Source: Eledone cirrhosa
Taxonomy: Eukaryota
Assembly: GCA_964016885.1 (NCBI GenBank)
Contig: OZ024742.1
Span: forward strand, 125,178,001-125,242,000
Reading direction: 5' to 3'
DNA length: 64,000 nucleotides
Shown: positions 13,521 through 47,035 of the stretch, piece after piece
Layout: every line of letters begins with the position of its first letter
Position numbering within the stretch: position 1 is the first letter of the stretch
Notes under the pieces: model-generated
Told to the model about the DNA's origin: nothing
Seen by the model: only the letters and a program-made list of their open reading frames with translations
Database searches by the model: none
Program-made: the position numbers and the translations under genes

Positions 13521-13553
<33 letters not shown>

Positions 13554-13740
13554 GATAATTTAATATATCAACTAACATAAGCGCACAGATGCACGCCCAT
13601 GCCAGCAAATACACAGGTTATGTCATAGTACCTAGGTGGTTCAATGCAGGAGAATGCAGAACAATAATATAAAGGACGTAAAATAAGAAAATATTTTTTT
13701 TTTTAAATTTTAAAAAAATTTTTTTCTTACTTAAATTTTC

Positions 13741-13822
13741 ACTCCAACTAATTAGTTTCTGCAATGGGATAAAGACAGTTACGTAATCCAACTGTCGAGA
13801 ATTCATTGCGTCATCAGGGAGT
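13741..13822 (-). ncRNA. Type I hammerhead ribozyme, family 1
   Basis: ACTCC-CTGATGA-C-GCAATG...CATTGC-A-GAAA-CTAATTAG-TT^GGAGT: stem I ACTCC/GGAGT, stem II GCAATG/CATTGC with inner GACAGTT/AACTGTC hairpin, palindromic stem III, GUU site. Confidence 0.9.
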
Positions 13823-14297
13823 CTATTCTCAGTTAAGTCTCCAGGCAATGCGCGGACACTGGCGGCTCATATAAAAATAATAATAATTCGGTAGATCGAA
13901 CAGCTTGCGAGGACTGGATTCTATGTACCGAAATTCTCACTGCTTCAAGTCAAATGGCCGATTCTAAAGAATCAATCACGTGACACAGAGGCTAGTTAGA
14001 AGGAATGGGATGGTAAGATGACTGACGCCTACTAACACCCCCAAAAAAATTTTTTTAGAAGTGGTTTTGACAAGTTTGCTCGACAAATCAGTGATTTGGA
14101 GATAAATATAGATAATTTAATATATCAACTAACATAAGCGCACAGATGCACGCCCATGCCAGCAAATACACAGGTTATGTCATAGTACCTAGGTGGTTCA
14201 ATAGTGGAGAATGCAGAACAATAATATAAAGGACGTAAAATAAGAAAATATTTTTTTAAAAAAATTTTAAAAAAATTTTTTTCTTACTTAAATTTTC

Positions 14298-14379
14298 ACT
14301 CCAACTAATTAGTTTCTGCAATGGGATAAAGACAGTTACGTAATCCAACTGTCGAGAATTCATTGCGTCATCAGGGAGT
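14298..14379 (-). ncRNA. Type I hammerhead ribozyme, family 1
   Basis: Same motif as 13741-13822, 557 nt away. Confidence 0.9.
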
Positions 14380-14527
14380 CTATTCTCAGTTAAGTCTCCA
14401 GGCAATGCGCGGACACTGGCGGCTCATATAAAATTATTGCAGAAACTAATTAGTTGGAGTGAAAATTTAAGTAAGAAAAAAATTTTTTTTAAATTTTTTT
14501 TAAAAAAATATTTTCTTATTTTACGTC

Positions 14528-14665
<138 letters not shown>

Positions 14666-18737: not shown

Positions 18738-19758
18738 GGGGAAAAGAGAATGAATATTATAGAGGAGAAATAGTCTAATGAGGTCTGTAACTTGAGGAGA
18801 GTCCATGGATCCCATCGTTATATCGAATAAGTTGTTATATGTGTTTCTTGTCCAGTGTTCTTCATGGAAGTTTAGTAAGGTTTTTCTAGCGTGAGTTATG
18901 ATGTTGATTTCCTCAGTAGATAAATCCTATCTATTTCTGGCGAAGATCAGTGCTTTGTTTAAGAGAATTGTAGATATCGAAGAATAGCAAGAATCGATGT
19001 CGAATTGTATGAATGAAGCTGAGTTTTTATTCACTATTCTTAGTGAACCACTCAATAACCTGGGAAGTGTTATCCCATAATGGAAGTGTTACACATTTTC
19101 CAATTTGCGGAATGATTCGATCAATAATTTTCTTGCTCATAGTACCGATATCAGATTTTGATGGGCATATCAGTCTAATAGATGGTTTCGAATTAAAGTC
19201 AGATTTATGGTTCTTCAGGTTGAAGTGCGGGTTTTTAGGTGTGAAAGTCTCTGTCCTATCTTCAATGTGGAGTTATTTTACTATAGCACATGATATGTTG
19301 TTCAAGGGTGTCAGTGCGGTGGTGCTGGTTTTCTTATAGTTTTTTCTAAGTTCTTTATAAACGAACTGGTTATACTTATCGATGTCCATATGGTATAGAT
19401 TACCAGTTTTGTCAGAATGGACATGGACCTTGTTTGAACTTTTCAGTTGCAGAAGGGTAGATAGAGTCTAATTCCTTTTGGAATTCAGATTTGTGTTTAC
19501 TGAACCTTACGTTTTTAATTATGTTCAGTAGGGCGCTCTCAAAATGTTCAAGTTGAATATTATGAGGAGGATTTTTGTATGTGTTGAATCCATAGCGGTA
19601 CTTCTTTTCATTTGTATTGGTTTGTTGTCAAAATGATAGTCTCTCCATCGCATTCTGCTAATAAACTGGTTAGGTTTTTGTATGAGCACGAGTAGATATT
19701 CGTCTTTAGGTGGAATCGGAATATTCTTCAACGAAGTACCCAAATATTGTTTTTCCAT
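18738..19758 (-). mobile_element. Naiad PLE, inverted 5' portion (ATG to RT motif B')
   Basis: MEKQYLGTSLKNIPIPPKDEYLLVLIQK..FISRMRW N-terminal motif; ends in an inverted copy of about 19770-19893. Confidence 0.85.
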
Positions 19759-19764
19759 TGTGAC

Positions 19765-21700
19765 GCAAGAACAACACTGGACAAGAAACACATATAACAA
19801 CTTATTCGATATAACGATGGGATCCATGGACTCTCCTCTAGTTACAGACCTCTTTGGACTATTTCTCATCTATAATATTCATTCCTCTTTTCCCTACCTC
19901 AAAAGTCGTCTTTATCGGGATGATTGTCTATTGATATCTAACAATCTTAGCAATTCTAATATAGAGAAAAAAAAACAAATGAGAAAATTCCTCAAGGACT
20001 ATTGCAACCTTAACATCACCTTTGAAAACACCTCAAAAGTAGCTAACTTCCTTGACGTTACCTTAGACCTCTCTACGAATATTTATCAACCTGACCAACC
20101 AGAATCTACACTATGTACGTTCACGCTCTAACCACCCTGGCTCTATACTAAAAAACTTAGTATATAACATATCTCTTAGACTTTCTAAATTATCTTCCAA
20201 TGAGGATATATTTTATAAAAATGCACCCTTCTACAACGAAGCCCTAACTAGAAGTGGATATAAAGAAAACATTTCATATATCCCAAACACTACTATGGAC
20301 CATACTACTAAACCTAGCAAAAACTACAAACACCAAAAAATACCATCGAAACAAATGCCTAATGGGGTCATTCCTATCACACCAAACAACCGAAAAACCA
20401 CAACAACTATTACTACCCGATCTATGACCAACGTTAACAACTCACATATGAATACCAAACATTCAACCTCTCATAATCTACCCAATAATAACACCAAATA
20501 CAACCACTGCAATTTACCAACTTCCACAAATACAAAAGCTAATCATAAGAACTCATCTAGAACACAGCACATTAATATAAGTGGGAATAAGAACTTAACT
20601 AAAAACCGCAAAAGAAACAGAACATGGTACAACGCACCCTTCAACCTGCAAACTATTGGACAAATCCCCAAAAAATTCTTCGAAATTCTACATAAACATT
20701 TTCCACCAAACCACAGATACCACCAAATATTTAACAGGTATACTGTTAAATTCTCATACTCTACATCAAACAATCTCCAGCAAAAAATAAGCAACTACAA
20801 CATTTATAAATTTAAAAATAATATGACCACACCACCACAACATAATTTAAATAAGACTTCACCTTTTAAAAGGACAAATAATACAATCCTTCAACCTTGA
20901 AAACACAACACTCAAATCACCAACACAAAAACAACATAACACGAAATCACAACATAACCCTAGCACTAAATTACCCACAAAGCAATATTCATTCTCTCGC
21001 TAACATTAATTACAATAACAATAGCTCAATGATTAATGAGAATTATGTAGGTACCCCCAACAACCATCTTACGTATGGTTGTAATTGCAGAAATAGAAGC
21101 GTTTGCCCCTTAAATGGCAACTGTTTGATTAATCATATAATATATAAATGCACTGTGTCTACAACTGACTCCAACAAATCATATATAGGATCTACATCGA
21201 ACACATTTAAGAAAAGATATTACGCACATTCCAGTAGCTTTAACAATACTAAACTAGCTAACACCACATCTTTAGCTGAAGCAGTAAATAACTATAAAAA
21301 GAAAAGATATAGTGGGATACCATACTGCAAAGGGAACAGGAGAGAATGCAGATTATTTTCGGGGAATATCTTGGAAATTACTAAATCTAAGGACGATTTA
21401 TTGAATAAAATACAGGAATTGATTATAGCTTGTAATCACCGTATACGAAAAACATTTAAGTACTATAAACCTAATTAAACATTCTAAATAGCAACTCACT
21501 ATAATTCTATGTAACGTATCATTTGTTAGTATCCCCTTCCCCACATTATACGCCTTCCTGTTTATTTATTTTTTTTTAACCTTTTAATTGTTTAGCTTCC
21601 ATAGATTCATGCGTTACTGACTAAGGGAATCAAGGTACATAACCAGCTGTAATTGCATGGGTATACATGTATCTATTTATGTATGATAAAAGAATATATA
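19765..21700 (+). mobile_element. Naiad PLE, 3' portion (RT, linker, GIY-YIG endonuclease, partial 3' UTR), frameshifted
   Basis: FDITMGSMDS..LYRDDC..NFLDVTLDL; RKRNRTWYNAPF; CNCRNRSVCPLNGNC..IIY..SYIGST..FKKRY..LLNKIQE..CNH (ORFs 19682-20131, 20295-20900, 20897-21478). Confidence 0.88.
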
Positions 21701-21930: not shown

Positions 21931-22026
<96 letters not shown>

Positions 22027-22221
22027 GAGAGATAATTTAATATATCAACTAACATAAGCGCACAGATACACGCCCATGCTAGCAAATACACAGGTTATGT
22101 CATAGTACCTAGGTGGTTCAATGCAGGAGAATGCAGAACAATAATATAAAAGACGTAAAATAAGAAAATATTTTTTAAAAGAAATTTTTTAAAAATTGTT
22201 TACTTACTTACTTAAATTTTC

Positions 22222-22298
22222 ACTCCAGCTAATTAGTTTCTGCAATGGGATAAAGACAGTTACGTAATCCAACTGTCGAGAATTCATTGCGTCATCAG
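22222..22298 (-). ncRNA. Inactivated family 1 hammerhead
   Basis: GUU site mutated to GCU and a 15-nt deletion removes the 5' strand of stem I. Confidence 0.75.
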
Positions 22299-22767
22299 TT
22301 AAGTCTCCAGGCAATGCGCGGACACTGGCGGCTCATATAAAAATAATAATAATTCGGTAGATCGAACAGCTGGTGAGGACTGGATTCTATGTACCGAAAT
22401 TCTCACTGCTTCAAGTCAAATGGCCGATTCTAAAGAATCAATCACGTGACACAGAGGCTAGTTAGAAGGAATGGGATGGTAAGATGACTGACGCCTACTA
22501 AAACCCCCCCAAAAAATTTTTTTAGAAGTGATTTGGCAAGTTTGCTCGACAAATCAGTGATTTGGAGATAAATATAGATAATTTAATATATCAACTAACA
22601 TAACCGCACAGATGCACGCCCATGCTAGCAAATACACAGGTTATGTCATAGTACCTAGGTGGTTCAATGCAGGAGAATGCAGAACAATAATATAAAAGAC
22701 GTAAAATAAGAAAATATTTTTTAAAAATAATTTTTTTTTAATTTTTTACTTACTTACTTAAATTTTC

Positions 22768-22849
22768 ACTCCAACTAATTAGTTTCTGCAATGGGATAAA
22801 GACAGTTACGTAATCCAACTGTCGAGAATTCATTGCGTCATCAGGGAGT
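22768..22849 (-). ncRNA. Type I hammerhead ribozyme, family 1
   Basis: Intact core and stems I-III. Confidence 0.9.
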
Positions 22850-23188
22850 CTATTCTCAGTTAAGTCTCCAGGCAATGCGCGGACACTGGCGGCTCATATA
22901 AAAATAATAATAATTCGGTAGATCGAACAGCTGGCGAGGACTGGATTCAATGTACCGAAATTCTCACTGCTTCAAGTCAAATGGCCGATTCTAAAGAATC
23001 AATCACGTGACACAGAGGCTAGTTAGAAGGAATGGGATGGGATGGTAAGATGACTGACGCCTACTAAGCAGTGAGAATTTCGGTACAATAAATCAAGTCC
23101 TCGCCAGCTGTTCGATCTACCGAATTATTATTATTTTTATATGAGCCGCCAGTGTCCGCGCATTGCCTGGAGAATTAACTGAGAATAG

Positions 23189-23270
23189 ACTCCCTGATGA
23201 CGCAATGAATTCTCGACAGTTGGATTACGTAACTGTCTTTATCCCATTGCAGAAACTAATTAGTTGGAGT
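23189..23270 (+). ncRNA. Type I hammerhead ribozyme, family 1
   Basis: CTGATGA at 23194-23200, GAAACTAATTAGTT^GGAGT; predicted cleavage after 23265. Confidence 0.9.
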
Positions 23271-23749
23271 GAAAATTTAAGTAAGTAAGTAAACAATTTT
23301 TAAAAAATTAAAAAAAAAAAATATTTTCTTATTTTACGTCTTTTATATTATTGTTCTGCATTCTCCTGCATTGAACCACCTAGGTACTATGACATAACCT
23401 GTGTATTTGCTAGCATGGGCGTGCATCTGTGCGCTTATGTTAGTTGATATATTAAATTATCTATATTTATCTCCAAATCACTGATTTGTCGAGCAAACTT
23501 GCCAAAACCACTTCTAAAAAAATTTTTTTTGGGGTGTTAGTAGGCGTTAGTCATCTTACCATCCCATTCCTTCTAACTAGCCTCTGTGTCGCGTGATTGA
23601 TTCTTTAGAATTGGCCATTTGACTTGAAGCAGTGAGAATTTCGGTATATAGAATCCAGTCCTCGCCAGCTGTTCGATCTACCGAATTATTATTATTTTTA
23701 TATGAGCCACCAGTGTCCGCGCATTGCCTGGAGACTTAACTGAGAATAG

Positions 23750-23831
23750 ACTCCCTGATGACGCAATGAATTCTCGACAGTTGGATTACGTAACTGTCTT
23801 TATCCCATTGCAGAAACTAATTAGTTGGAGT
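23750..23831 (+). ncRNA. Type I hammerhead ribozyme, family 1
   Basis: Intact motif 561 nt after the previous copy. Confidence 0.9.
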
Positions 23832-24310
23832 GAAAATTTAAGTAAGTAAGTAAAACATTTTTTAAAAATTTCTTTTAAAAAATATTTTCTTATTTTACGT
23901 CTTTTATATTATTGTTCTGCATTCTCCTGCATTGAACCACCTAGGTACTATGACATAACCTGTGTATTTGCTAGCATGGGCGTGCATCTGTGCGCTTATG
24001 TTAGTTGATATATTAAATTATCTATATTTATCTCCAAATCACTGATTTGTCGAGCAAACTTGCCAAAACCACTTCTAAAAAAATGTTTTTTGGGGTGTTA
24101 GTAGGCGTCAGTCATCTTACCATCCCATTCCTTCTAACTAGCCTCTGTGTCACGTGATTGATTCTTTAGAATCGGCCATTTGACTTGAAGCAGTGAGAAT
24201 TTCGGTATATAGAATCCAGTCCTCGCCAGCTGTTCGATCTACCGAATTATTATTATTTTTATATGAGCCGCCAGTGTCCGCGCATTGCCCGGAGACTTAA
24301 CTGAGAATAG

Positions 24311-24392
24311 ACTCTCTGATGACGCAATGAATTCTCGACAGTTGGATTACGTAACTGTCTTTATCCCATTGCAGAAACTAATTAGTTGGAGT
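24311..24392 (+). ncRNA. Type I hammerhead ribozyme, family 1
   Basis: Intact core; stem I ACTCT/GGAGT (one G-U). Confidence 0.88.
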
Positions 24393-24456
24393 GAAAATTT
24401 AAGTAAGTAAAAAATTTTTGTAAAGTTTTTTTTTTAAAATGCTTTCTTATTTTACG

Positions 24457-24515
<59 letters not shown>

Positions 24516-25436
24516 GAGAAGAAGTTTATGAAACGGAAATGCGGGTATAAAGAATTTATTAGGTAACAATTGTTTCTATAGTGTATGGGTTACCTATACC
24601 TCGCTATTAGAATAATATAAACATATTATCATAAACCGAAGATACACTGTAAGCAAACATACCATGTCGTCAGACCTTTGCATTGGAATGATATGAAAAT
24701 ATTTTATACACTAGATAAAAGAGAAAGAAGGAGATAGGAAGAGAAGGGGAAGAGGGAAGTGAGTAAGGGGGAGGGAGTCCTAGGATTTAAGACTGTCAGA
24801 CTAGTAGAGATTGTAAGGAGAGAATGTTTTGGCAGCAGTTAGCTTAATGAGGCGTGTTAGGGTTGGTGGGGGAAGTAAATTCTTCTAGTGGTGTTGTTTG
24901 AACAAAATTTAGTTAAAGGGGTCAAAGTGGTACAGAGTTACAGACAAGTTATTGGGGCTATTATAGTAGCAGGTTATTTCTAAAGGGGTTCAGAAAACAG
25001 TGTTTAGTACTATTATTATAGAAAGCCATATCCTGTGTATAAACATATAAAACAGAAATTTGCAAACGGTGGTGTAAAAAGGTAACATTATATGCATTTA
25101 AAAAAAGAAAAAGTCGTTTTCAAACGATGGCTACAGTACAGTGAACGTTCAATTTTGCTGTTCAAAAGTTTGTTTACCGACGTTAAAATGCAGTATATCT
25201 CCATATTGCATAATTTACAGAATCGATGATTTTGCTTATATGCAGGCGCAGGTGCAATAATTTGCCAATCAAGGGAGAATGCTTGATTGTTCCTCCGGAG
25301 CTGCCAGGCTTTATCGGCAAGGGTTGTTACGGAGCGCATTTTCTCGTGCCTGATCGAAGATCGATGTTGGTATAGGCGAGCTTTGAAAGAATTTACGGTA
25401 CATCCGACGTAATACCATTTGTTGGTTCCGGAATTG
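24516..25436 (-). mobile_element. Naiad PLE 3' fragment (GIY-YIG C-terminus plus 3' UTR/pLTR)
   Basis: ORF 25088-25339: TTLADKAWQLR..WQII..CKLCNMEI..LLNSKIE..CSH, preceded by YVG..FKARL. Confidence 0.82.
24561..24677 (-). ncRNA. Type I hammerhead with long stem II insertion in Naiad 3' UTR
   Basis: AGGT-CTGACGA-C-ATGGTATG...CATACACTAT-A-GAAA-CAATTG-TT^ACCT-AATAAA. Confidence 0.78.
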
Positions 25437-26459: not shown

Positions 26460-26520
26460 GTATATTTCTAATGACTTGAATTTGTATTTCATTGTTTTAA
26501 CTTATATATATATATATATA

Positions 26521-27520
26521 GCGAGTGATTATTAAGACAGCGGCCAGCTTACTACCATAGTAGCAGTCATGGGCAAATATTGCTCGACAAATGAATTGGA
26601 GATAATTATAAGGAAGTTATATCTAGTAACATTTATATACACACAGATGCATATCAATGCTAGCAAATATATAGGTTTTGTCTTATTAACAATGTGGTTC
26701 AATGCATGGGGTTGCAGAACAATAATATGAGAGACGTAAAATAAGAAAATTATAAAATTAACTTACTTACTACAATGGCTTGGAATCCAGTCCACGCTTT
26801 ACTCCATTCCAGAAACTAATTAGTTGGAAGTGATTTTTTAGTAAGTTAATTTTATAATTTTCTTATTTTACGTCTCTCATATTATTGTTCTGCAACCCCA
26901 TGCATTGAACCACATTGTTAATAAGACAAAACCTATATATTTGCTAGCATTGATATGCAACTGTGTGTATATAAATGTTACTAGATATAAATTCCTTATA
27001 ATTATCTCCAATTCATTTGTCGAGCAATATTTGGCCATGACTCCTACTATGGTAGTAAGCTGGCCGCTGTCTTAATAACCACTCGCTTTCCACTGATTGA
27101 CCTCGATGTCACGTGATTGATTCTTTTTGAATTTGCCACAGACGAGGAGGCAGTGATTTTCTCAATGGCTTGGAATCCAGTCCACGCTTTGCTATTTCCA
27201 TTCCACTGAATTATTTTTTTAATAAGTTTCCAGTGTCCTCGCTATGCCTGGAGACCTATACGGAAAAAGACTTTCCTGATGACGGAATGATTTTCTGTGT
27301 TTCTTCGGAAAATATATTTACTCCATTCCAGAAACTAATTAGTTGGAAGTGATTTTTTAGTAAGTAAGTTAATTTTATAATTTTCTTATTTTACGTCTCT
27401 CATATTATTGTTCTGCAACCCCATGCATTGAACCACATTGTTAATAAGACAACACCTATATATTTGCTAGCATTGATATGCATCTGTGTGTATATAAATG
27501 TTACTAGATATAAATTCCTT
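26521..27520. mobile_element. HHR tandem-repeat (retrozyme-like) family 2, head-to-head array
   Basis: Diverged homolog of family 1; minus arm 26521-26772, plus arm 26773-27520, 519-nt period; (TA)n on both sides. Confidence 0.85.
27270..27350 (+). ncRNA. Type I hammerhead ribozyme, family 2
   Basis: ACTTTC-CTGATGA-C-GGAATG-ATTTTCTG..CGGAAAAT..CATTCC-A-GAAA-CTAATTAG-TT^GGAAGT. Confidence 0.9.
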
Positions 27521-27532
27521 ATATATATATAT

Positions 27533-27572
<40 letters not shown>

Positions 27573-27573
<1 letters not shown>

Positions 27574-34026: not shown

Positions 34027-34063
<37 letters not shown>

Positions 34064-34323
34064 TTTCTTTATTAACCACAAGGGTTTACATAAAGTAGAC
34101 ATTAAGGACAGTGCAGGACAATGCAGGACGGTACAAATGGGCATTTCTGCGTGTAAAAAAACAAAAACAGAGGATGTAACAAAAATAACAATGAAAATAA
34201 CAATGAAAAATTCCCCAATAGGGGGGAGACTTCGGAGGGACATTTGTGGAGAAAGCCCAGTAAAAAGCCACAATGACCCTGACCACCAAGGCAAGTGCCC
34301 TCTCCCAGTTTTCCACCTTTAGT

Positions 34324-37300
34324 TTACAGATATATACTCAGAGTCGGCCCATTCACTCGGGCCATTCTTGCTTCTCTCACCCACCTTTCAACAAAATGCT
34401 GGGAAGAGAGCACTTCCCTCTCTACTCTGATTTTCCTTTTCAAATGAAATTTGAAAAAGTCAATCAGAGCATCACCGAAGAGGTAAGTGCTCGTCTTCAG
34501 CCCTTTCAAACGTGTCCACCATACTATCTCTTTCGCCATGGCCACCAGACAGATAAAAACTGCCTGCCCTTCCCGGCTAAAGGAGGAGGGCGGGGCAATC
34601 CTCACGATGGACTCAGATGATAGCTGGATCCGTCCTAAACGCGACAGCAGGTGTTCGACATAAACCCTCAAGTCAGCAATTTTCGGACACTGGACGAGTG
34701 CGTGCAGGACGGTTTCGTCGCCCTGCGCGCATCTCGGACATGCCCGGCTGACGGCACCTCCATGCCTGTAGAGTTTATCCCGAACTGGCAAGGCTCCTCG
34801 GTAGCACTGCCAGGCCAGAGATTTCTGGAAGTTGTCCATAGGCCCTGGCCCGAAAGTTCTTCCGAAGAGATTGGCTAGTTGATTTTCGTCGACGCCTAGA
34901 GTTTCCCCAAGTACGTCGTCGCTCTTCCCCTCCACTAATCCTCTATAGAACGCCGAGGTGGAGTTTCCACCGATCACATTGCTCGATTGGTCGAGGGCTG
35001 TGAGCGCCTGAAGACATTCCAGTCTCCAGGCGCTCCCTCTCGGTCTTCGCTTGACCCAGGACTGCAGCTCCGTCAAGGAAACGAGCTGGGGAAAAACGCG
35101 TCTAGCAAACGGCGACCACACCTGATCACCGTCGAGGAAGAGGTGGAGATGTCGTAGCCTGAGCGCGTGCCTGCGCATCATCAGCCACGGCATGCCCAGC
35201 CCTCCACGTAGCGGGTGTTGACAACAGATGGACCGCCTGACCATCGGAGCACGTCCCTTCCACAAAAAGCGAAAGAGCAAACGCTCCAGCGCAGTCAGGC
35301 GAGGCTTAGGACAAGGTACGACGGTTAGGCGGTAGCAGATGACAGACGCGATGTACGCGTTAGCCACCTCCGCTCGACCTTTCAGGGATAGCTTCCTCTC
35401 CGCCCATTTCTGGGTGAGAGAAGCCACCCTGCTCGTCACCTCGTCCCAGTTTTTGTCCGTCTGGAGGTCCGGACCGAACCAGACCCCTAGCAATTTAACC
35501 GGTCCGTCCGTCCAGCGCCCGACGACGCTGTTGGACGGCATGGACCTGCCTCTCCAGGTGCCGAGCTGCAGGCCCACTGACTTTTCCTGGTTGATCATTG
35601 CTCCTGTCACCGCTTCGTATTCTCTTAGTGTAGTGCCGATCGCCTCGATGTGTTTGGCGTTCGACACCACTACGGTGACATCGTCCGCATATGCTGACAC
35701 GGATCTTCCGCATCCTAGTTCGCGCGGGACTCCCCTCAACGTCTCCAGTTTGTGCAGTAATGGCTCGAGAGTCAATACGTACAAGAGGGACGAGAGGGGA
35801 CATCCTTGGCGGACCGAGCGCATGATGTTGAACGGTTCCGACAGGTGACCGTTCACTCTCACCACAGAGCAGATGTTGCTGTGCATGGCAGCGATCCAGC
35901 CTCTGAAGACGGGCCCAAAGCCAGCCGCCCTCAGGACTGCCGCTAGGTAACGATGGTCGACCCTATCGAAAGCTTTCGACTGATCTAAATTGATCAAGGA
36001 CCCACCCGTGCCAGGTTCCCTAGCTACCCTCTCTACGATGTATCGCATGAGGTGGAGGTTGTCGTGGATGGATCTGTCGGGAATGGCGCATGTCTGCGCC
36101 TCTCCCACCAGACCACCAACGACAAGCGCCAACCTCTTTGCTAGCACCTTGGCCAAAATCTTAAACTCTGTGTTTAGCAGAGTTATGGGCCGGAAATTGT
36201 CTATGTTATCCCCCTTGTTCGGATCCTTTCTCAGCAGTGCCACCGCTCCTCGGCTCACAGAACTGGGAATTCTCCCGTTCTGTTGCCAGTTGCAGTAGAC
36301 GTCCGCCAAGAGGCCTCCGAACAAGTCTGGCATCTGTACGTAAAGTTCATAGGGCAGACCATCCAAACCAGGCGATTTACCCCTTGTGCAGCCAGTCATT
36401 GCCTCCCGTACTTCAGCGGCTGTTATCGGCTTTTCGCAACACCTCGCCTCAGTGGCCGAGAGCCGCGGCAGTCCGTCGAGGTAGACACTAAAGTCCATCC
36501 CTCTACCCGGCTCCCCGCTGCCCCCGAACAGCTGAGCGAAGTGTCGCTGAAAAGCTTCACACATTTGCCCGGGATCGAGTAGCATGCGCCCGTCGTGGTC
36601 CACCAAAGACCGGATCGTGGCTTTGTTGCCACGACGCGCCTCCGCCACTCGGGCCCATTGAACGGCTTTCGTCCCCTCGTGTCTGAGAGCACGCACCCTA
36701 GCTCTGACAACGCAGCCTTCGTGCTTTGCATTGAAGAATTGGTCAAGGGCCAATTTCGCCGCAAGCACGTCGGTCGCAATGCCTTTGCTAAGCGCCTCGT
36801 CTAATTTTCTAACTAGTTCTCCCTCTGCTCTATTTTTCTCTATTGCTAAAGCCTTACTAAACCTAATCGATTCTATTCTAATCGCTCTTTTCAGAGCAAA
36901 CCACCACTTGTTGTTGACGATGGCCCCCGTCAACGCCCGCTTAACTAGTTCGCTAATCCGGTCTCTGTAGGCCTTGCGCGCTGGTAAGGACGCGTTTAGC
37001 TTCCAGTAGCCGGGTCCTCGTCTATGAAGCCTATCTAAGTCAAGCACACAGGTCACGAATTTGTGGTCCGTGTAGCTGACTATCTTGAATTGTGGACAGC
37101 CTATGCTAGACCTATCTATTTCCCTACAAAATACTCTATCTAGATATGATCTGGATGACCCTATGCGGTTTGTCCAAGTCCACATTGGCACATTCGGAAA
37201 ATCCAATCGGTACCTGTCAGACAGTTCAAAACGCCTGAGCAGGTTGGTGAGGCTCTTGCACCCTCCACCCCTATCCGCTAATCCCACACAGTCCCAGCGT

Positions 37301-37743
37301 GCATCTAAGATCCCGTTCCAGTCGCCCACTAACACTAAAGAGCGGGACGTTCCAAGAAAGGTCTCCAGACGCCGGAAGAAATCAGGCCGCCCTGCTCCTG
37401 TCGGGGCATAGACGGCCACTAGCCTGAAAGCTTGCCCGTCTCCGCTGGTCACGTCCAGCACCACCAGCTTACCCTCTGGGTCCAGGAAGATGGCCCGTAT
37501 GGCGAGATCCAAACCTCTCCGAAAAATCACAGCAACTCCTCCACCCGATCCAGGACGGCTGGGAGATGCGTACACATCGTAGCCGCCGAAGATCGGTGCG
37601 AAGGCCCGTGCTTCGGAGATTCTGGTCTCGCTGATGGCCACTACATCTATGTTTAGTGACCTGAGGTCGTTGAGCAGGTGACCCTGCTTCCATGACGACC
37701 CCAAGCCACGCGCATTTATGCTGCCTATTCTGAGTGAGGTCAT
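34324..37743 (-). CDS. L1/Tx1 ORF2: AP endonuclease, reverse transcriptase, C-terminal zinc finger (1139 aa)
   Basis: SINARGL, ISETR, VYAP, GDWN, YLDR, TDHK; KSPGLDGLP, FRPITLLN, QGCPLS, YADD; CPRC..ETVLHALVQC. Confidence 0.95.
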   Translation of the reverse strand: MTSLRIGSINARGLGSSWKQGHLLNDLRSLNIDVVAISETRISEARAFAPIFGGYDVYASPSRPGSGGGVAVIFRRGLDLAIRAIFLDPEGKLVVLDVTSGDGQAFRLVAVYAPTGAGRPDFFRRLETFLGTSRSLVLVGDWNGILDARWDCVGLADRGGGCKSLTNLLRRFELSDRYRLDFPNVPMWTWTNRIGSSRSYLDRVFCREIDRSSIGCPQFKIVSYTDHKFVTCVLDLDRLHRRGPGYWKLNASLPARKAYRDRISELVKRALTGAIVNNKWWFALKRAIRIESIRFSKALAIEKNRAEGELVRKLDEALSKGIATDVLAAKLALDQFFNAKHEGCVVRARVRALRHEGTKAVQWARVAEARRGNKATIRSLVDHDGRMLLDPGQMCEAFQRHFAQLFGGSGEPGRGMDFSVYLDGLPRLSATEARCCEKPITAAEVREAMTGCTRGKSPGLDGLPYELYVQMPDLFGGLLADVYCNWQQNGRIPSSVSRGAVALLRKDPNKGDNIDNFRPITLLNTEFKILAKVLAKRLALVVGGLVGEAQTCAIPDRSIHDNLHLMRYIVERVAREPGTGGSLINLDQSKAFDRVDHRYLAAVLRAAGFGPVFRGWIAAMHSNICSVVRVNGHLSEPFNIMRSVRQGCPLSSLLYVLTLEPLLHKLETLRGVPRELGCGRSVSAYADDVTVVVSNAKHIEAIGTTLREYEAVTGAMINQEKSVGLQLGTWRGRSMPSNSVVGRWTDGPVKLLGVWFGPDLQTDKNWDEVTSRVASLTQKWAERKLSLKGRAEVANAYIASVICYRLTVVPCPKPRLTALERLLFRFLWKGRAPMVRRSICCQHPLRGGLGMPWLMMRRHALRLRHLHLFLDGDQVWSPFARRVFPQLVSLTELQSWVKRRPRGSAWRLECLQALTALDQSSNVIGGNSTSAFYRGLVEGKSDDVLGETLGVDENQLANLFGRTFGPGPMDNFQKSLAWQCYRGALPVRDKLYRHGGAVSRACPRCAQGDETVLHALVQCPKIADLRVYVEHLLSRLGRIQLSSESIVRIAPPSSFSREGQAVFICLVAMAKEIVWWTRLKGLKTSTYLFGDALIDFFKFHLKRKIRVEREVLSSQHFVERWVREARMARVNGPTLSIYL

Positions 37744-37778
37744 GTTTAAAATAGAGTGGAAAAGATGGGAAAGACCAC

Positions 37779-39875
37779 TTACCGTACTTTTGGTAGAGGA
37801 GGGATGGTTTTTACATCCCTTTTCACTTGATCGTCTGGTGAAGGGACCGTTGAATCGTCCCTTCGGCTGGTCGTCGGCTCTTCTAAGAGAATGTCTGAAT
37901 ATACTCTTCGATTGATGGTTCCTCCTAGGTCCCTGAAATCACCAACTGCGTTGGGGAATTTCGTTTTAATGTTTGTGTATTGTTTCTGTGCTATTTTTAG
38001 CAGTCTTATGTTAGTTGGCGTTTTGATTGGTGCTGGTATTATGTAGTCCTGTTGTGAAATGTCTGTGTGTTCAATTATGTAAGTCATTAGTTTCTTGTTG
38101 TGTGTGTTTATTGCCGTGCATTTGTTTTTCTGGGGGTGGGGTGTGGTTCTGCTATTTTCTTGTCGTTGTTGCTGGGTGTGTGTGTTTTGTTGTTGTGTTT
38201 GCGATGTTGGTGCTTGTGGTGGTGGTGTTGAAGGTGTTGTTGGCGGTGGGGTTGTCGCCGGTGGTGATGGTGGTGCTGGTGTGGGTGGTGATGGTGTTGG
38301 TGGTGTTGCTGCTGTGGGTCTCTTTGCAGTAGACTTTACCCTTTTCTCATTTCTTTCCTCCCTTTTCAAAGGCGACGATGCGCTGCTTCTGCGTTTGTGC
38401 CTTCTTGCGACCTTTTGCCATCCCTCTCCCACCTCACACTCCATGTCTGATTCTGTAAGGTCGGGGAGGGGTACCAGCTCCACTCTTTCACTTGTTGTTG
38501 TTGGTGATGTTTGCACTGGAGTCTCTGTTGCAGCTGCATTTGGTATTGCTGTTGTTGTTGTTAATATTTCCACTGCTGCTGCTGTCTTTGATTTCCGTGG
38601 AGTGGGTATGGGTGCCACGGACCTATCGTTCCTGGTTGCCGCTTGTCCTGTTGCTGGTAGCCGTGGAGCCGGATTCGGAAGGAGGGGGGTTTTCTCCTTT
38701 CTCAGGGTCTTCTCGTTGCAGAAGGCCCTGAGGTGAGTCTTCGATCCACAGCGAAAGCATTTCGGGCGTTTGCCCTCAACACTTATGGGCAGTTGAGTGC
38801 CGTTATCGAAGTCTATCACATTCGGGATAGCTTCGATGCACTCCTGGTTGGTTTGGATTAGCATCTCAATGGAGGAGCCGACCCAATCTTCTCTTACTTT
38901 TTTCTGTACTTGCAGTACAGTTGTTTTGTCCTCGATTCCGACGAGGACAGACGCGGCCAGCCAAGAAGGGGTCATTCCGGGGGGGACGTGGGTCAGTTTG
39001 ACCCTCACAATTTTTTGCCCGCAGTAGGAGGGCACCAACACCATTTCCTCGCTCCTTAGGGTCACTACTGATTGGGCCTTTGCCTCCTGGGGTGTGGCAA
39101 AAAGTACGTCTACGGTGGCGTATTTTTTGCCTCGGGTGATGTGCGTTTTCCTCTGCCACACAGACCCCAAGGCTTTTTGTATTTGGGCCTCTGTGGCTCT
39201 TTCCACCCTACGTGATTTTGTACTTACTGTACGGTACGTGACCGTACAGTGCTCTTGGGTTTCGAAAAAATTTTTCGCTGCCTTGCAGATTGCTCGGTGT
39301 CCGTTCTTTGTCACCATCTTCTTCGCTTCCTCTAATTCCTCATTTGTTATGAGGATTGTTTCCAAGTTTTTCGCAATACCTGCAAATGACATTGGTTTTT
39401 CTCTGCTGTTGTTGTTGTCGTCAGAGCTGCTGGTACTTTTGTTGTTGCTGCAGGTACTACGACTACTGCCTCCGCCGCTGTTGCTGTGGTTGTTGTTGGT
39501 GTTGCTGCTGCTAATGCTGTTGTTGTTTATGCTGCTGGTGATGCTGTTGCGGCTGCTACTGTTGTTTTCATTGTCACTGTTGCTGTTGTTATTACGGCTG
39601 CTACTGCTATTATTCCTGACGTCAGACGAATGAACTGGGTTTTCGTATTTCCCGCACACCTGTTTCGTCGCTGTCGTCGTCGTCGTGGAGAAACCTTGCA
39701 CGCTTTGCACGAGACTTTTCTTTTCTTTCGTCGCTTGCGAAAGAGAAGGGAGGGAGAGAGACACATTTAAATAAGGGAGGGAGAGAGACAATCTTCTCTC
39801 TGCTGTAGTGATGATTGAGGAAGAAGAAGACGGAATGAGTGGGAGTGACGTATGAAATTTCTTTTTCGTAGCCAT
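37779..39875 (-). CDS. L1/Tx1 ORF1: nucleic-acid-binding protein with CCHC zinc knuckle (698 aa from first ATG)
   Basis: CFRCGSKTHLRAFC; Ser/Asn- and Pro/Thr-rich tracts; lies directly upstream of ORF2. Confidence 0.9.
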   Translation of the reverse strand: MATKKKFHTSLPLIPSSSSSIITTAERRLSLSLPYLNVSLSLPSLSQATKEKKSLVQSVQGFSTTTTTATKQVCGKYENPVHSSDVRNNSSSSRNNNSNSDNENNSSSRNSITSSINNNSISSSNTNNNHSNSGGGSSRSTCSNNKSTSSSDDNNNSREKPMSFAGIAKNLETILITNEELEEAKKMVTKNGHRAICKAAKNFFETQEHCTVTYRTVSTKSRRVERATEAQIQKALGSVWQRKTHITRGKKYATVDVLFATPQEAKAQSVVTLRSEEMVLVPSYCGQKIVRVKLTHVPPGMTPSWLAASVLVGIEDKTTVLQVQKKVREDWVGSSIEMLIQTNQECIEAIPNVIDFDNGTQLPISVEGKRPKCFRCGSKTHLRAFCNEKTLRKEKTPLLPNPAPRLPATGQAATRNDRSVAPIPTPRKSKTAAAVEILTTTTAIPNAAATETPVQTSPTTTSERVELVPLPDLTESDMECEVGEGWQKVARRHKRRSSASSPLKREERNEKRVKSTAKRPTAATPPTPSPPTPAPPSPPATTPPPTTPSTPPPQAPTSQTQQQNTHTQQQRQENSRTTPHPQKNKCTAINTHNKKLMTYIIEHTDISQQDYIIPAPIKTPTNIRLLKIAQKQYTNIKTKFPNAVGDFRDLGGTINRRVYSDILLEEPTTSRRDDSTVPSPDDQVKRDVKTIPPLPKVR

Positions 39876-40088
39876 GTTTTTTTGTTTAAAATGAAATTTT
39901 TGGTACAAAACCCCAATAACTGGTTATTTAACCCCGAAGGGCCAAATAACGGACAGAAAGACCCCTCTCACGAGGAGGAGGGTGTCTTTATCAACAATTT
40001 GGTTCAAGTTTTAAACAATTTACAATTGTTTTAACGGTTAAAAATTACTATACCTTACAGAGCCGAGCCTCCGTCAACCATGGCATTC

Positions 40089-40121
<33 letters not shown>

Positions 40122-40210
40122 CTAAACTATAATAAAGTAAGTGCTGCGGGACTGCGTACGGTTTATTTCTTTTAATCAAGTTAGTAAAATAAGTTGGATT
40201 ACTTTGAATC

Positions 40211-40392
40211 AATAATTGTTTCTACTTTAGGCACAAGGCCAGCAATTACCCAGTACATTACTGGTACTTTATTTTATCGACCCCGTAAGGATGAAAGGCA
40301 AAGTTAACCTCGGCGGGATTTGAACTCAGACTGTAAAGGGACGTAACTATGCTAGAAAGCATGGCGTCCAACCCTCTACCGATACTGCCAAA
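40211..40392 (-). mobile_element. tRNA-derived SINE (MetaSINE-like)
   Basis: Reverse-complement of the SINE consensus. Confidence 0.88.
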
Positions 40393-41220
40393 ATGAATGA
40401 ATATTACAAATGTATGCACTGAATTTCGTAAACAAATAATTTCGTAAAAATAAATAATTTAAAATTGACTTCTTTTCAAAGTTGCACTTCCCGTATATCG
40501 TCGCCACCACCACCACTTCAACTACCATATATATAGAAAGAGGGAGTGTGTGATGAGAGAGATAGAGAGATTATGATTTTCTACAAGCTGGAGCATATGA
40601 GTGTGCATATACATACATCTATATGTATGAGTATATAACTATTATGAGTATATAACTATAATCGCGCAAACACAAATTTATAAAAATACACACTCACGGA
40701 CATAATTCACGCAAATACACATACATTCACACATACTTTCACACAAACATACATACATTCACACATATACATTTACACAAACACACGCATACAGTCAAGT
40801 TTTATTTATTTATTAACTCTTTATTTATTTATTATCACTTTTTTTTAAACTCATTTAATATAATGGTTACAGAACAAAAACACTAACAAATATAATATAT
40901 GCAAAGGAAAGGGAAGGAAAAAAAGAAAGAGAAAAAAGACGCAAGCAGGTAATACACACCTCTAAGACGATATGCTGGCGAAAGAGTAGAACGGGCCACT
41001 ACCAGAGCAAAATATGGCAATATAGACAGGGGCACTGAGAAACCTCACTAATAATTTTTGAGGCAAGCCAGCACGCTCGCAGCGTTACCTGGGGTGATGG
41101 CGAGGCTGAAGTGTTCCATTATGCACACTACATATGCTAGCAGAAAACCGCCCGAAGGGTGATTTTTCTGCTAGTAGTAGTAATAATAATAAAAGTAATA
41201 ATAATAATAATAATAATAAT

Positions 41221-44200
41221 GATTTCTTTATTAACCACAAGGGTTTACATAAAGAAGACATTAAGGACAGTGCAGGACAATGCAGGACGGTACAAATGGG
41301 CATTTCTGCGTGTAAAAAACAAAAACAGAGGATGTAACAAAAATAACAATGAAAATAACAATGAAATATTCCCCAATAGGGGCGAGACTTCGGAGGGACA
41401 TTTGTGGAGAAAGCCCAGTAAAAAGCCACAATGACCCTGACCACCAAGGCAAGTGCCCTCTCCCAGTTTTCCACCTTTAATTTACAGATATATACTCAGA
41501 GTAGGCCCATTCACTCGGGCCATTCTTGCTTCTCTCACCCATCTTTCAACAAAATGCTGGGAAGAGAGCACTTCCCTCTCTACTCTGATTTTCCTTTTCA
41601 AATGAAATTTGAAAAAGTCAATCAGAGCATCACCGAAGAGGTAAGTGCTCATCTTCAGCCCTTTCAAACGTGTCCACCATACTATCTCTTTCACCATGGC
41701 CACCAGGCAGATAAAAACTGCCTGCCCTTCCCGGCTACAAAGGAGGGCGGGGCAATCCTCACGATGGACTCAGATGATAGCCGGATCCGTCCTAAACGCG
41801 ACAGCAGGTGTTCGACATAAACCCACAAGTCAGCAATTTTCGGACACTGGACGAGTGCGTGCAGGACGGTTTCGTCGCCCTGCGCGCATCTCGGACATGC
41901 CCGGCTGACGGCACCTCCATGCCTGTAGAGTTTATCCCGAACTGGCAAGGCTCCTCGGTAGTACTGCCAGGCCAGAGATTTCTGGAAGTTGTCCATAGGC
42001 CCCGGCCCGAAAGTTCTTCCGAAGAGATTGGCTAGTTGATTTTCGTCGACGCCTAGAGTTTCCCCAAGTACGTCGTCGCTCTTCCCCTCCACTAATCCTC
42101 TATAGAACGCCGATGTGGAGTTTCCACCGATCACATTGCCCGATTGGTCGAGGGCTGTGAGCGCCTGAAGACATTCCAGTCTCCAGGCGCTCCCTCTCGG
42201 TCTTCGCTTGACCCAGGACTGCAGCTCCGTCAAGGAAACGAGCTGGGGAAACACGCATCTAGCAAACGGCGACCACACCTGATCACCGTCGAGGAAGAGG
42301 TGGAGATGTCGTAGCCTGAGCGCGTGCCTGCGCATCATCAGCCACGGCATGCCCAGCCCTCCACGTAGCGGGTGTTGACAACAGATGGACCGCCTGACCA
42401 TCGGAGCGCGTCCCTTCCACAAAAAGCGAAAGAGCAAACGCTCCAGCGCAGTCAGGCGAGGCTTAGGACAAGGTACGACGGTCAGGCGGTAGCAGATGAC
42501 GGACGCGATGTACGCGTTAGCCACCTCCGCTCGACCTTTCAGGGATAGCTTCCTCTCGGCCCATTTCTGGGTGAGAGAAGCCACCCTGCTCGTCACCTCG
42601 TCCCAGTTTTTGTCCGTCTGGAGGTCCGGACCGAACGAGACCCCTAGCAATTTAACCGGTCCGTCCGTCCAGCGTCCGACGACGCTGTTGGACGGCATGG
42701 ACCTGCCTCTCCAGGTGCCGAGCTGCAGGCCCACTGACTTTTCCTGGTTGATCATTGCTCCTGTCACCGCTTCGTATTCTCTTAGTGTAGTGCCGATCGC
42801 CTCGATGTGTTTGGCGTTCGACACCACTACGGTGACATCGTCCGCATATGCTGACACGGATCTTCCGCATCCTAGTTCGCGCGGGACTCCCCTCAACGTC
42901 TCCAGTTTGTGCAGTAATGGCTCGAGAGTCTATACGTACAAGAGGGACGAGAGGGGACATCCTTGGCGGACCGAGCGCATGATGTTGAACGGTTCCGACA
43001 GGTGACCGTTCACTCTCACCACAGAGCAGATGTCGCTGTGCATGGCAGCGATCCAGCCTCTGAAGACGGGCCCAAAGCCAGCCGCCCTCAGGACTGCCGC
43101 TAGGTAACGATGGTCGACCCTATCGAAAGCTTTCGACTGATCTAAATTGATCAAGGACCCAGCCGTGCCAGGTTCCCTAGCTACCCTCTCTACGATGTAT
43201 CGCATGAGGTGGAGGTTGTCGTCGATGGATCTGTCGGGAATGGCGCATGTCTGCGCCTCTCCCACCAGACCACCAACGAAGAGCGCCAACCTCTTTTCTA
43301 GCACCTTGGCCAAAATCTTAAACTCTGTGTTTAGCAGAGTTATGGGCCGGAAATTGTCTATGTTATCCCCCTTGTTCGGATCCTTTCTCAGCAGTGCCAC
43401 CGCTCCTCGGCTCACAGAACTGGGAATTCTCCCGTTCTGTTGCCAGTTGCAGTAGACGACCGCCAAGAGGCCTCCGAACAAGTCTGGCATCTGTACGTAA
43501 AGTTCATAGGGCAGACCATCCAAACCAGGCGATTTACCCCTTGTGCAGCCAGTCATTGCCTCCCTTACTTCAGCGGCTGTTATCGGCTTTTCGCAACACT
43601 TCGCCTCAGTGGCCGAGAGCCGCGGCAGTCCGTCGAGGTAGACACTAAAGTCCATCCCTCTACCCGGCCCCCCGCTGCCCCCGAACAGCTGAGCGAAGTG
43701 TCGCTGAAAAGCTTCACACATTTGCCCGGGATCGAGTAGCATGCGCTCGTCGTGGTCCACCAAAGACCGGATCGTGGCTTTGTTGCCACGACGCGCCTCC
43801 GCCACTCGGGCCCATTGAACGGCTTTCGTCCCCTCGTGTCTGAAAGCACGCACCCTAGCTCTGACAACGCAGCCTTCGTGCTTTGCATTGAAGAATTGGT
43901 CAAGGGCCAATTTCGCCGCAAGCACGTCAGTCGCAATGCCTCGTCTAATTTTCTAACTAGTTCTCCCTCTGCTCTATTTTTCTCTATTGCTAAAGCCTTA
44001 CTAAACCTGATCGATTCTATTCTAATCGCTCTTTTCAGAGCAAACCACCACTTGTTGTTGACGATGGCCCCCGTCAACGCCCGCTTAACTAGTTCGCTAA
44101 TCCGGTCTCTGTAGGCCTTGCGCGCTGGTAAGGACGCGTTTAGCTTCCAGTAGCCGGGTCCTCGTCTATGAAGCCTATCTAAGTCAAGCACACAGGTCAC

Positions 44201-47035
44201 GAATTTGTGGTCCGTCTAGCTGACTATCTTGAATTGTGGACAGCCTATGCTAGACCTATCTATTTCACTACAAAATACTCTATCTAGATATGATCTGGAT
44301 GACCCTATGCGGTTTGTCCAAGTCCACATTGGCACATTCGGGAAATCCAATCGGTACCTGTCAGACAGTTCAAAACGCCTGAGCAGGTTGGTGAGGCTCT
44401 TGCACCCTCCACCCCTATCCGCTAATCCCACACAGTCCCAGCGTGCATCTAAGATCCCGTTCCAGTCGCCCACTAACACTAAAGAGCGGGACATTCCAAG
44501 AAAGGTCTCCAGACGCGGGAAGAAATCAGGCCGCCCTGCTCCTGTCGGGGCATAGACGGCCACTAGCCTGAAAGCTTGCCCGTCTCCGCTGGTCACGTCC
44601 AGCACCACCAGCTTACCCTCTGGGTCCAGGAAGATGGCCCGTATGGCGAGATCCAAACCTCTCCGAAAAAGCACAGCAAATCCTCCACCCGATCCAGGAC
44701 GGCTGGGAGATGCGTACACATCGTAGCCGCCGAAGATCGGTGCGAAGGCCCGTGCTTCGGAGATTCTGGTCTCGCTGATGGCCACTACATCTATGTTTAG
44801 TGACCTGAGGTCGTTGAGCAGGTGACCCTGCTTCCATGACGACCCCAAGCCACGCGCATTTATGCTGCCTATTCTGAGTGAGGTCATGTTTAAAATAGAG
44901 TGGAAAAGATGGGAAAGACCACTTACCGTACTTTTGGTAGAGGAGGGATGGTTTTTACATCCCTTTTCACTTGATCGTCTGGTGAAGGGACCGTTGAATC
45001 GTCCCTACGGCTGGTCGTCGGCTCTTCTAAGAGAATGTCTGAATATACTCTTCGATTGATGGTTCCTCCTAGGTCCCTGAAATCACCAACTGCGTTGGGG
45101 AATTTCGTTTTAATGTTTGTGTATTGTTTCTGTGCTATTTTTAGCAGTCTTATGTTAGTTGGCGTTTTGATTGGTGCTGGTATTATGTAGTCCTGTTGTG
45201 AAATGTCTGTGTGTTCAATTATGTAAGTCATTAGTTTCTTGTTGTGTGTGTTTATTGCCGTGCATTTGTTTTTCTGGGGGTGGGGTGTGGTTCTGCTATT
45301 TTCTTGTCGTTGTTGCTGGGTGTGTGTGTTTTGTTGTTGTGTTTGCGATGTTGGTGCTTGTGGTGGTGGTGTTGAAGGTGTTGTTGGCGGTGGGGTTGTC
45401 GCCGGTGGTGATGGTGGTGCTGGTGTGGGTGGTGATGGCGTTGGTGGTGTTGCTGCTGTGGGTCTCTTTGCAGTAGACTTTACCCTTTTCTCATTTCTTT
45501 CCTCCCTTTTCAAAGGCGACGATGCGCTGCTTCTGCGTTTGTGCCTTCTTGCGACCTTTTGCCATCCCTCTCCCACCTCACACTCCATGTCTGATTCTGT
45601 GAGGTCGGGGAGGGGTACCAGCTCCACTCTTTCACTTGTTGTTGTTGGTGATGTTTGCACTGGAGTCTCTGTTGCAGCTGCATTTGGTATTGCTGTTGTT
45701 GTTGTTAATATTTCCACTGCTGCTGCTGTTTTTTATTTCCGTGGAGTGGGTATGGGTGCCACGGACCTATCGTTCCTGGTTGCCGCTTGTCCTGTTGCTG
45801 GTAGCCGTGGAGCCGGATTCGGAAGGAGGGGGGTTTTCTCCTTTCTCAGGGTCTTCTCGTTGCAGAAGGCCCTGAGGTGAGTCTTCGATCCACAGCGAAA
45901 GCATTTCGGGCGTTTGCCCTCAACACTTATGGGCAGTTGAGTGCCGTTATCGAAGTCTATCACATCCGGGATAGCTTCGATGCACTCCTGGTTGGTTTGG
46001 ATTAGCATCTCAATGGAGGAGCCGACCCAATCTTCTCTTACTTTTTTCTGTACTTGCAGTACAGTTGTTTTGTCCTCGATTCCGACGAGGACAGACGCGG
46101 CCAGCCAAGAAGGGGTCATTCCGGTGGGGACGTGGGTCAGTTTGACCCTCACAATTTTTTGCCCGCAGTAGGAGGGCACCAACACCATTTCCTCGCTCCT
46201 TAGGGTCACTACTGATTGGGCCTTTGCCTCCTGGGGTGTGGCAAAAAGTACGTCTACGGTGGCATATTTTTTGCCTCGGGTGATGTGCGTTTTCCGCTGC
46301 CACACAGACCCCAAGGCTTTTTGTATTTGGGCCTCTGTGGCTCTTTCCACCCTACGGTTTTTTGTACTTACTGTACGGTACGTGACCGTACAGTGCTCTT
46401 GGGTTTTGAAAAATTTTTCCGCTGCCTTGCAGATTGCTCGGTGTCCGTTCTTTGTCACCATCTTCTTCGCTTCCTCTAATTCCTCATTTGTTATGAGGAT
46501 TGTTTCCAAGTTTTTCGCAATACCTGCAAATGAGATTGGTTTTTTCTCTGCTGTTGTTGTTGTCGTCAGAGCTGCTGGTACTTTTGTTGTTGCTGCAGGT
46601 ACTACGACTACTGCCTCCGCCGCTGTTGCTGTGGTTGTTGTTGGCGTTGCTGCTGCTAATGCTGTTGTTGTTTATGCTGCTGGTGATGCTGTTGCGGTGC
46701 TACTGTTGTTTTCATTGTCACTGTTGCTGTTGTTATTACGGCTGCTACTGCTATTAGTCCTGACGTCAGACGAATGAACTGGGTTTTCGTATTTCCCGCA
46801 CACCTGTTTAGTCGCTGTTGTCGTCGTCGTGGAGAAACCTTGCACGCTTTGCACGAGACTTTTCTTTTCTTTCGTCACTTGCGAAAGAGAAGGGAGGGAG
46901 AGAGAGACATTTAAAGAAGGGAGGGAGAGAGACAATCTTCTCTCTGCTGTAGTGATGATTGAGGAAGAAGAAGACGGAATGAGTGGGAGTGACGTATGAA
47001 ATTTCTTTTTCGTAGCCATGTTGTTTTTTGTTTAA
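41221..47035 (-). mobile_element. L1/Tx1 family A copy 2, lacking 5' UTR, inactivated
   Basis: Near-identical to copy 1 but with stops (45733, 44216, 42930) and frameshifts (near 46540, 43938, 41735); (TAA)n at its 3' end. Confidence 0.93.

Follow-up and report, generated by a model that had tools for sequence, protein, structure and literature searches.

The non-LTR retrozymes of metazoans are non-coding, low-GC repeats with one type I hammerhead per unit, which form short tandems and reach thousands of copies in genomes that also harbour Penelope-like elements (PMC7229834; bioRxiv 10.64898/2026.07.22.740005). Unit lengths are given as 150-450 bp in the former account and 51-972 bp in the latter. 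Hammerheads in Penelope terminal repeats have an extra base between A9 and G10.1, a conserved G10.1-C11.1 pair and a palindromic helix III (PMC4209133). Penelope copies are mostly 5'-truncated and carry tandem and inverted terminal repeats (PMC8557442), and the elements have microsatellite targets and a tail of 30-40 nt between two internal start sites (PMC8557442, PMC11167929). The anole Penelope hammerhead is protein-assisted and dispensable for insertion in vitro (PMC11167929), eight of nine Xenopus retrozyme dimers failed to cleave (bioRxiv 10.64898/2026.07.22.740005), and RNA-to-RNA steps have been raised as a possibility (PMC4209133, PMC7229834).

The window analysed here is a 64,000-nt stretch of the Eledone cirrhosa genome (GCA_964016885.1, contig OZ024742.1, positions 125,178,001 to 125,242,000). 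With a probability of roughly 85%, the region at 26521-27520 is one insertion of a protein-free type I hammerhead repeat whose stem II covaries across subfamilies, likely a non-autonomous Penelope-like element (an animal non-LTR retrozyme). Because elements of this kind are already known (PMC7229834; bioRxiv 10.64898/2026.07.22.740005), the finding mainly adds a well-resolved case. The repeat shares the retrozyme features listed above; its unit of 525-561 nt is longer than the first published range and lies within the second. It differs from the described retrozymes in its mostly dispersed copies, in its inverted arms in (TA)n and its long two-part stem II. With the Penelope terminal-repeat hammerheads it has in common the A9/G10.1 base, the G10.1-C11.1 pair and the palindromic helix III, and with Penelope-like elements the 5' truncation, inverted arm, microsatellite targets and tail between two start sites. 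Unlike those elements as published, it lacks a reading frame, its tail measures ~118 nt, an extra A precedes G12 and TA-like microhomology is present at both start sites. Literature searches turned up no description of this repeat family.

Layout of the insertion

The interval 26521-27520 contains an inverted arm and two type I hammerhead motifs, of which one is broken and the other complete (Table 1). On the left, 26521-26772 belongs to no tandem but is an inverted arm with an outer end atypical for the family. Only one hammerhead is complete, since CTGATGA is present once, at 27276; no CTGATGA precedes the GAAAC word at 26812, because a jump at the junction removed the 5' half of that ribozyme. 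The junction segment 26773-26800 is a 28-nt copy of 27163-27190, fused to the 3' half of the hammerhead via a TTT microhomology. The longest ATG frame in the full unit has 53 aa. Its 519-nt period, previously taken as the unit of the family, results from deletions of 4 nt and 2 nt relative to the family-2 unit, which is 525 nt in 15 of 24 spacings in family-2 loci and 519 nt in one.

Table 1. Positions, in the window, of the hammerhead repeat copy and of the elements compared with it
Feature	Position	Strand	Remarks
Family-1 element, second	13545-14535	.	inverted arms, with a long end at +192 and a short end at +75
Family-1 element	22022-24461	.	two inverted arms, (TA)n on either side; used for comparison
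(TA)n target, left half	26503-26520	.	read from sequence
Inverted 5'-truncated arm	26521-26772	-	unit positions ~11-266 after predicted cut; self-comparison
Junction and broken ribozyme	26773-26825	+	lacks CTGATGA
Full unit, predicted cut to predicted cut	26826-27344	+	519 nt
Candidate pseudoknot, 5' strand	27262-27267	+	GGAAAA; GAGAA in other subfamilies
Type I hammerhead motif	27270-27350	+	direct reading, folding, alignment
Stem I	27270-27275 / 27345-27350	+	ACTTTC / GGAAGT
Core	27276-27282	+	CTGATGA
Extra C between core and stem II	27283	+	
Stem II	27284-27289 / 27324-27329	+	GGAATG / CATTCC
Candidate pseudoknot, 3' strand	27291-27295	+	TTTTC in stem II internal loop; TTCTC in other subfamilies
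Upper part of stem II	27296-27316	+	homologous to family-1 inner hairpin, with a 2-nt deletion here
Extra A after stem II	27330	+	
GAAACTAATTAGTT	27331-27344	+	with GAAA and palindromic stem III
Partial unit	27345-27523	+	ends at the family's fixed long 3' end (~+175 to +179)
(TA)n target, right half	27520-27573	.	read from sequence

Family size and subfamilies

A genome pattern search returned 5,211 motif matches, and three further patterns returned 3,811, 839 and 453, partly overlapping the first set; the reversed control gave 0 in each case. Short-stem versions of the motif (34 matches) were rejected as a separate class, nearly all looking like deletion derivatives. The copies are mostly dispersed, with 1-3 units each, and the units are protein-free and low in GC (35%). 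Other copies hold two or more hammerheads, against the one complete motif of the window copy. The family-1 unit has 561 nt and is homologous to that of family 2 along its whole length (68-70% identity by BLAST), with 67% identity outside and 73% inside the ribozyme domain.

From 180 loci, 229 hammerhead copies were extracted. Of 86 full-length copies, 66 remained for the tree after removal of 13 that aligned poorly and 7 near-duplicates. The tree was built from columns outside the ribozyme, an earlier flank tree having been discarded as distorted by TA tails, and it is rooted at the midpoint, so that the direction of subfamily change is not readable from it. Its lineages are ladder-like. In one, stem II reads GTAAGG/CCTTAC, then GTAATG/CATTAC, then GCAATG/CATTGC (family 1); in a second, GAAAGG/CCTTTC, then GAAATG/CATTTC, then GGAATG/CATTCC together with GGGATG/CATTCC (family 2). 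A further group has A in place of the extra C. The C-G and G-C pairs of the two families at stem II pair 2 are thus two tips of a path, because the intermediates run through U-A and A-U.

Outside the ribozyme, the block GATGTCACGTGATTGA (27106-27122 in the window) is at least 95% conserved in the 66 copies and is possibly an internal promoter element. At some loci (L027, L268) a retrozyme copy has as its immediate neighbour either a retrozyme of a different subfamily or another hammerhead element.

The hammerhead motif

The motif has a CUGANGA core, GAAA, an NUH cleavage triplet and three helices with helix I open, from which self-cleavage is predicted; the cut would fall after GUU, at 27344. 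Stem II is flanked on either side by one extra base, which is C or A after A9 and A before G12. The former position is that described for Penelope hammerheads (PMC4209133), whereas no description of the extra A before G12 was found in the published accounts of Penelope hammerheads that were consulted. A U at the first extra position, which could pair with the extra A, occurs scattered over subfamilies only. Published hammerheads can accommodate a U-U mismatch where stem II begins at its base (PMC3088659). Rfam searches in gathering and E-value modes gave no hammerhead match, even at E 5, and similar families may be under-counted because Rfam misses this variant.

The stems quoted in the first-pass annotation are present, and its family-1 motifs are as quoted, but several details were wrong. 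It had also held that the core is invariant while the rest has diverged. Core and stem III are indeed identical in 21/21 columns over six groups against 229/428 columns outside, a contrast that is overstated because most copies were collected with patterns fixing parts of the core, and the remainder of the unit is diverged but homologous. Stem III is invariant among copies, so no covariation is readable there. As for stem I, proposed as a compensatory change, family 2 differs from family 1 by a paired 1-bp insertion and a C-G to U.G change, and copies with an unpaired extra base also exist. Its distal extension is paired in 73% of cells (108-copy alignment), which is poor support.

Covariation in stem II

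The covariation alignment comprised 108 copies, at most 14 per class. At stem II pair 2 it contains AU 36, GC 34, UA 22 and CG 14 times, with 0/106 unpaired; pair 5 is UA in 52, GC in 48 and something else in 7. All five pairs of upper stem II show two-sided change, and 90% of cells are paired compared with 32-50% when the partners are slid. RNAalifold returned nine pairs, all in stem II, six of them with two-sided change. On the tree from outside the ribozyme, pair 2 requires at least 3/3/3 changes (5' base, 3' base, pair), of which 3/3 are joint, and pair 5 at least 3/2/3, made up of two joint changes and one single-copy mismatch. The branch carrying each change was read from living groups rather than from a mapped reconstruction. 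The product of the five branch lengths (0.025, 0.069, 0.025, 0.11, 0.064) gives ~3e-7 as the chance of partner changes on the same branches, a rough figure that ignores rate variation. Across the genome, pair 2 rarely shows mismatches of the strong/weak kind, with counts of 44 and 39 (C-C, G-G, A-A and T-T left out), and these are scattered and form no subfamily.

The "double compensatory" C-G to G-C exchange between the two families is therefore a genuine two-sided change of one base pair, and the comparison from which selection on RNA structure had been claimed yields that one compensated pair. It is the genome-wide subfamily covariation through which selection on the predicted RNA structure in master lineages is supported. 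A subfamily tree with five two-sided changes in one ribozyme helix provides evidence of fold selection in a mobile RNA.

The check proposed with that claim gave a divided answer, with the targeted stem II tests positive and a blind all-pairs search (R-scape-like script, tree-based null, 555 columns, 66 copies) returning no pair at E <0.5. Pair 5 reached E 3.5 and pair 2 E 63; the few long lineages give such a test little power. The blind result speaks for neutral satellite DNA, with the paired changes as chance hitch-hikers on long branches, and a few long local arrays do have mismatched stems (9 copies at C1:301.3 Mb). This explanation is nevertheless scarcely conceivable, given five two-sided changes in a 6-bp helix that the hammerhead consensus sets beforehand, four pair types at one position and copies dispersed as 1-3 units; the earlier statement that the repeats are not neutral satellite DNA is supported.

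In two long local arrays (G000:C1:301309677-301326937 and C12:24470339-24485203) the copies share a stem-breaking change, which suggests DNA-level amplification free of structural constraint.

Predicted folding and a candidate pseudoknot

An inner hairpin unrelated to that of family 1 had been reported for family 2. This hairpin, ATTTTCTG/CGGAAAAT, is the best fold in the window copy only, where it results from the 2-nt deletion; in a typical copy (L005) the upper stem folds in alignment with the family-1 inner hairpin and leaves ATTTTC free.

In five groups, the GAGAA that precedes stem I is the complement of TTCTC in the stem II internal loop; family 2a has GAAAA and TTTTC instead. The candidate 5-bp loop-loop pseudoknot is paired in 95.5% of cells (central pair GC 82, AU 21), and its support consists of one compensatory event. 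A search for a second, independent change found none: one-sided variants, 81 in number and scattered, outnumber the 12 double variants, of which 3 form a small sister group of family 2. Pseudoknotted hammerheads commonly have a Watson-Crick contact that links the stem I region to that of stem II, present in ~40% of the hammerheads in one study (PMC3088659). The candidate contact differs from those in using an internal loop of a long stem II, and the type I motif to which it belongs is carried by a repeat.

The pairing could instead belong to a hairpin that competes with the hammerhead, because the family-2 domain alone is not predicted to form the latter. Its predicted stem II probability is 0.00 in the window copy and 0.06 in L005, and constraining it to the hammerhead fold costs 5-7 kcal/mol relative to the minimum. 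None of the three circular monomers folded forms stem I. Circular monomers fold better than shuffled sequences, their z-scores against 25 shuffles apiece lying between about -3.3 and -3.6.

Insertion pattern

(TA)n is present on at least one side in 34/35 family-2 elements and on both sides in 25/35. In this family, 53 of 57 arm ends fall at one of two sites, ~+61 or ~+179 after the predicted cut, and 19 of 20 inverted elements have one short (~+61) and one long (~+179) end, the exception being the window copy. Over all subfamilies, exactly one short end occurs in 52/59 arm pairings and two short ends in none, in a count whose long-end class is blurred by internal TA runs. The (TA)n targets and two fixed ends, as analysed here, fit a Penelope tail with two internal start sites (PMC8557442, PMC11167929), and the strict rule of one short and one long end turns into a testable model for that tail.

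Penelope copies are likewise mostly 5'-truncated with tandem and inverted terminal repeats (PMC8557442), so the repeat might have no non-coding masters of its own, all its copies being what truncation has left of the terminal repeats of a coding Penelope-like element. Judged from the units themselves, such an origin is very unlikely: units follow one another head to tail without a frame between them, none longer than the 53 aa given above. Moreover, 48 of the 57 family-2 arms run through the predicted cut site, 18 of them twice or more. The copies combine 5' truncation, partial tandem or inverted arms, a tail at one end and microsatellite targets, as do non-autonomous Penelope-like elements, with a non-coding low-GC unit, a type I hammerhead and tandem copies, as do metazoan non-LTR retrozymes.

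The first-pass annotation regarded the repeats as an RNA-level replicon. For a viroid-like, RNA-to-RNA replicon with DNA copies as by-products, one could cite the folding of circular monomers and the RNA-RNA steps raised in PMC4209133 and PMC7229834. We consider it extremely unlikely, because the insertion marks (microsatellite targets, fixed 3' ends, variable 5' ends, inverted arms) are those of target-primed reverse transcription, the subfamilies succeed one another like a ladder and the window copies have a single hammerhead polarity. The data tested bear no sign of RNA-to-RNA copying; viral and metagenome contigs gave 0 matches, a weak point as such RNAs may be absent from those sets.

No excess of 5' breaks was seen at the predicted cut (1/148 sites, in a sample biased to intact ribozymes), and the DNA copies therefore carry no sign of cleavage in vivo. 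This is consistent with circular or uncut templates. It also favours a fold that serves as a signal to a Penelope-type protein, or needs protein help to cleave, rather than a free-standing ribozyme. The poor predicted folding of family 2, the GUU site and extra bases in the core, and the protein-assisted anole hammerhead, dispensable in vitro (PMC11167929), point the same way. Set against this are the catalytic positions common to six groups (21/21 columns, with the core-pattern bias) and the fact that circular templates would erase the 5'-break signal too; on balance the signal reading is unlikely.

Under the preferred reading of a non-autonomous Penelope-like element, a few master copies would be transcribed into multimers for the hammerhead to cut at GUU, perhaps acting in pairs joined by the palindromic stem III, and the monomers may then become circles. 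The (TA)n target would be nicked by a Penelope-type RT/GIY-YIG protein, and its two ends would be primed at separate internal positions of the RNA (~+179 and ~+61), with a circle or uncut multimer as template. Selection would act on the master RNAs that become reverse-transcribed: fold-keeping masters alone would go on amplifying, and inserted copies would decay neutrally.

A further proposal, tentative and rather doubtful, is that the motif is a distinct hammerhead subtype, with an extra base on both sides of stem II and the internal loop of a long stem II kissing the stem I loop through five Watson-Crick pairs, on a retrozyme with obligatory twin priming. Copying from the two (TA)n ends would then begin every time at two different fixed sites on a single RNA, probably a circle. 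If true, the family would chart a new ribozyme variant through its natural mutations and would show directly how inverted insertions are produced by Penelope enzymes.

Other hammerhead and Penelope-like elements

A second, unrelated hammerhead at 24561-24677 on the minus strand of the window has the same extra bases and a very long stem II. The element that carries it at the 3' end is truncated; relatives of that element (L264) have a GIY-YIG-like frame with no Pfam match. A pseudoknot in this coding family was rejected, its loop variants not covarying. Other hammerheads with the same two extra bases gave 1,648 genome matches (control 0), although the pattern itself required one of the two. 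In 30 loci these elements end at +51-66 in 17 and +160-234 in 8, the remaining 5 being unclear; none of the 30 shares sequence with the retrozyme unit, apart from separate nested copies. One such family (L265) lies behind a GIY-YIG frame (Pfam, E 2.5e-5).

A decayed Penelope-like remnant (P0001) at ~18900-21478 on the plus strand includes a YIG-type endonuclease end; 150 genome matches scored have 66-89% identity. No hammerhead was seen in the near 3' region of the remnant. Its family was rejected as coding partner, having in 30 loci no homology to the unit and no such hammerhead.

The host genome (3.0 Gb) is AT-rich and abounds in microsatellites and LINE-type frames. In the window, a 5.9-kb direct repeat of 98.5% identity at 34028-47040 is a LINE with endonuclease and RT domains.
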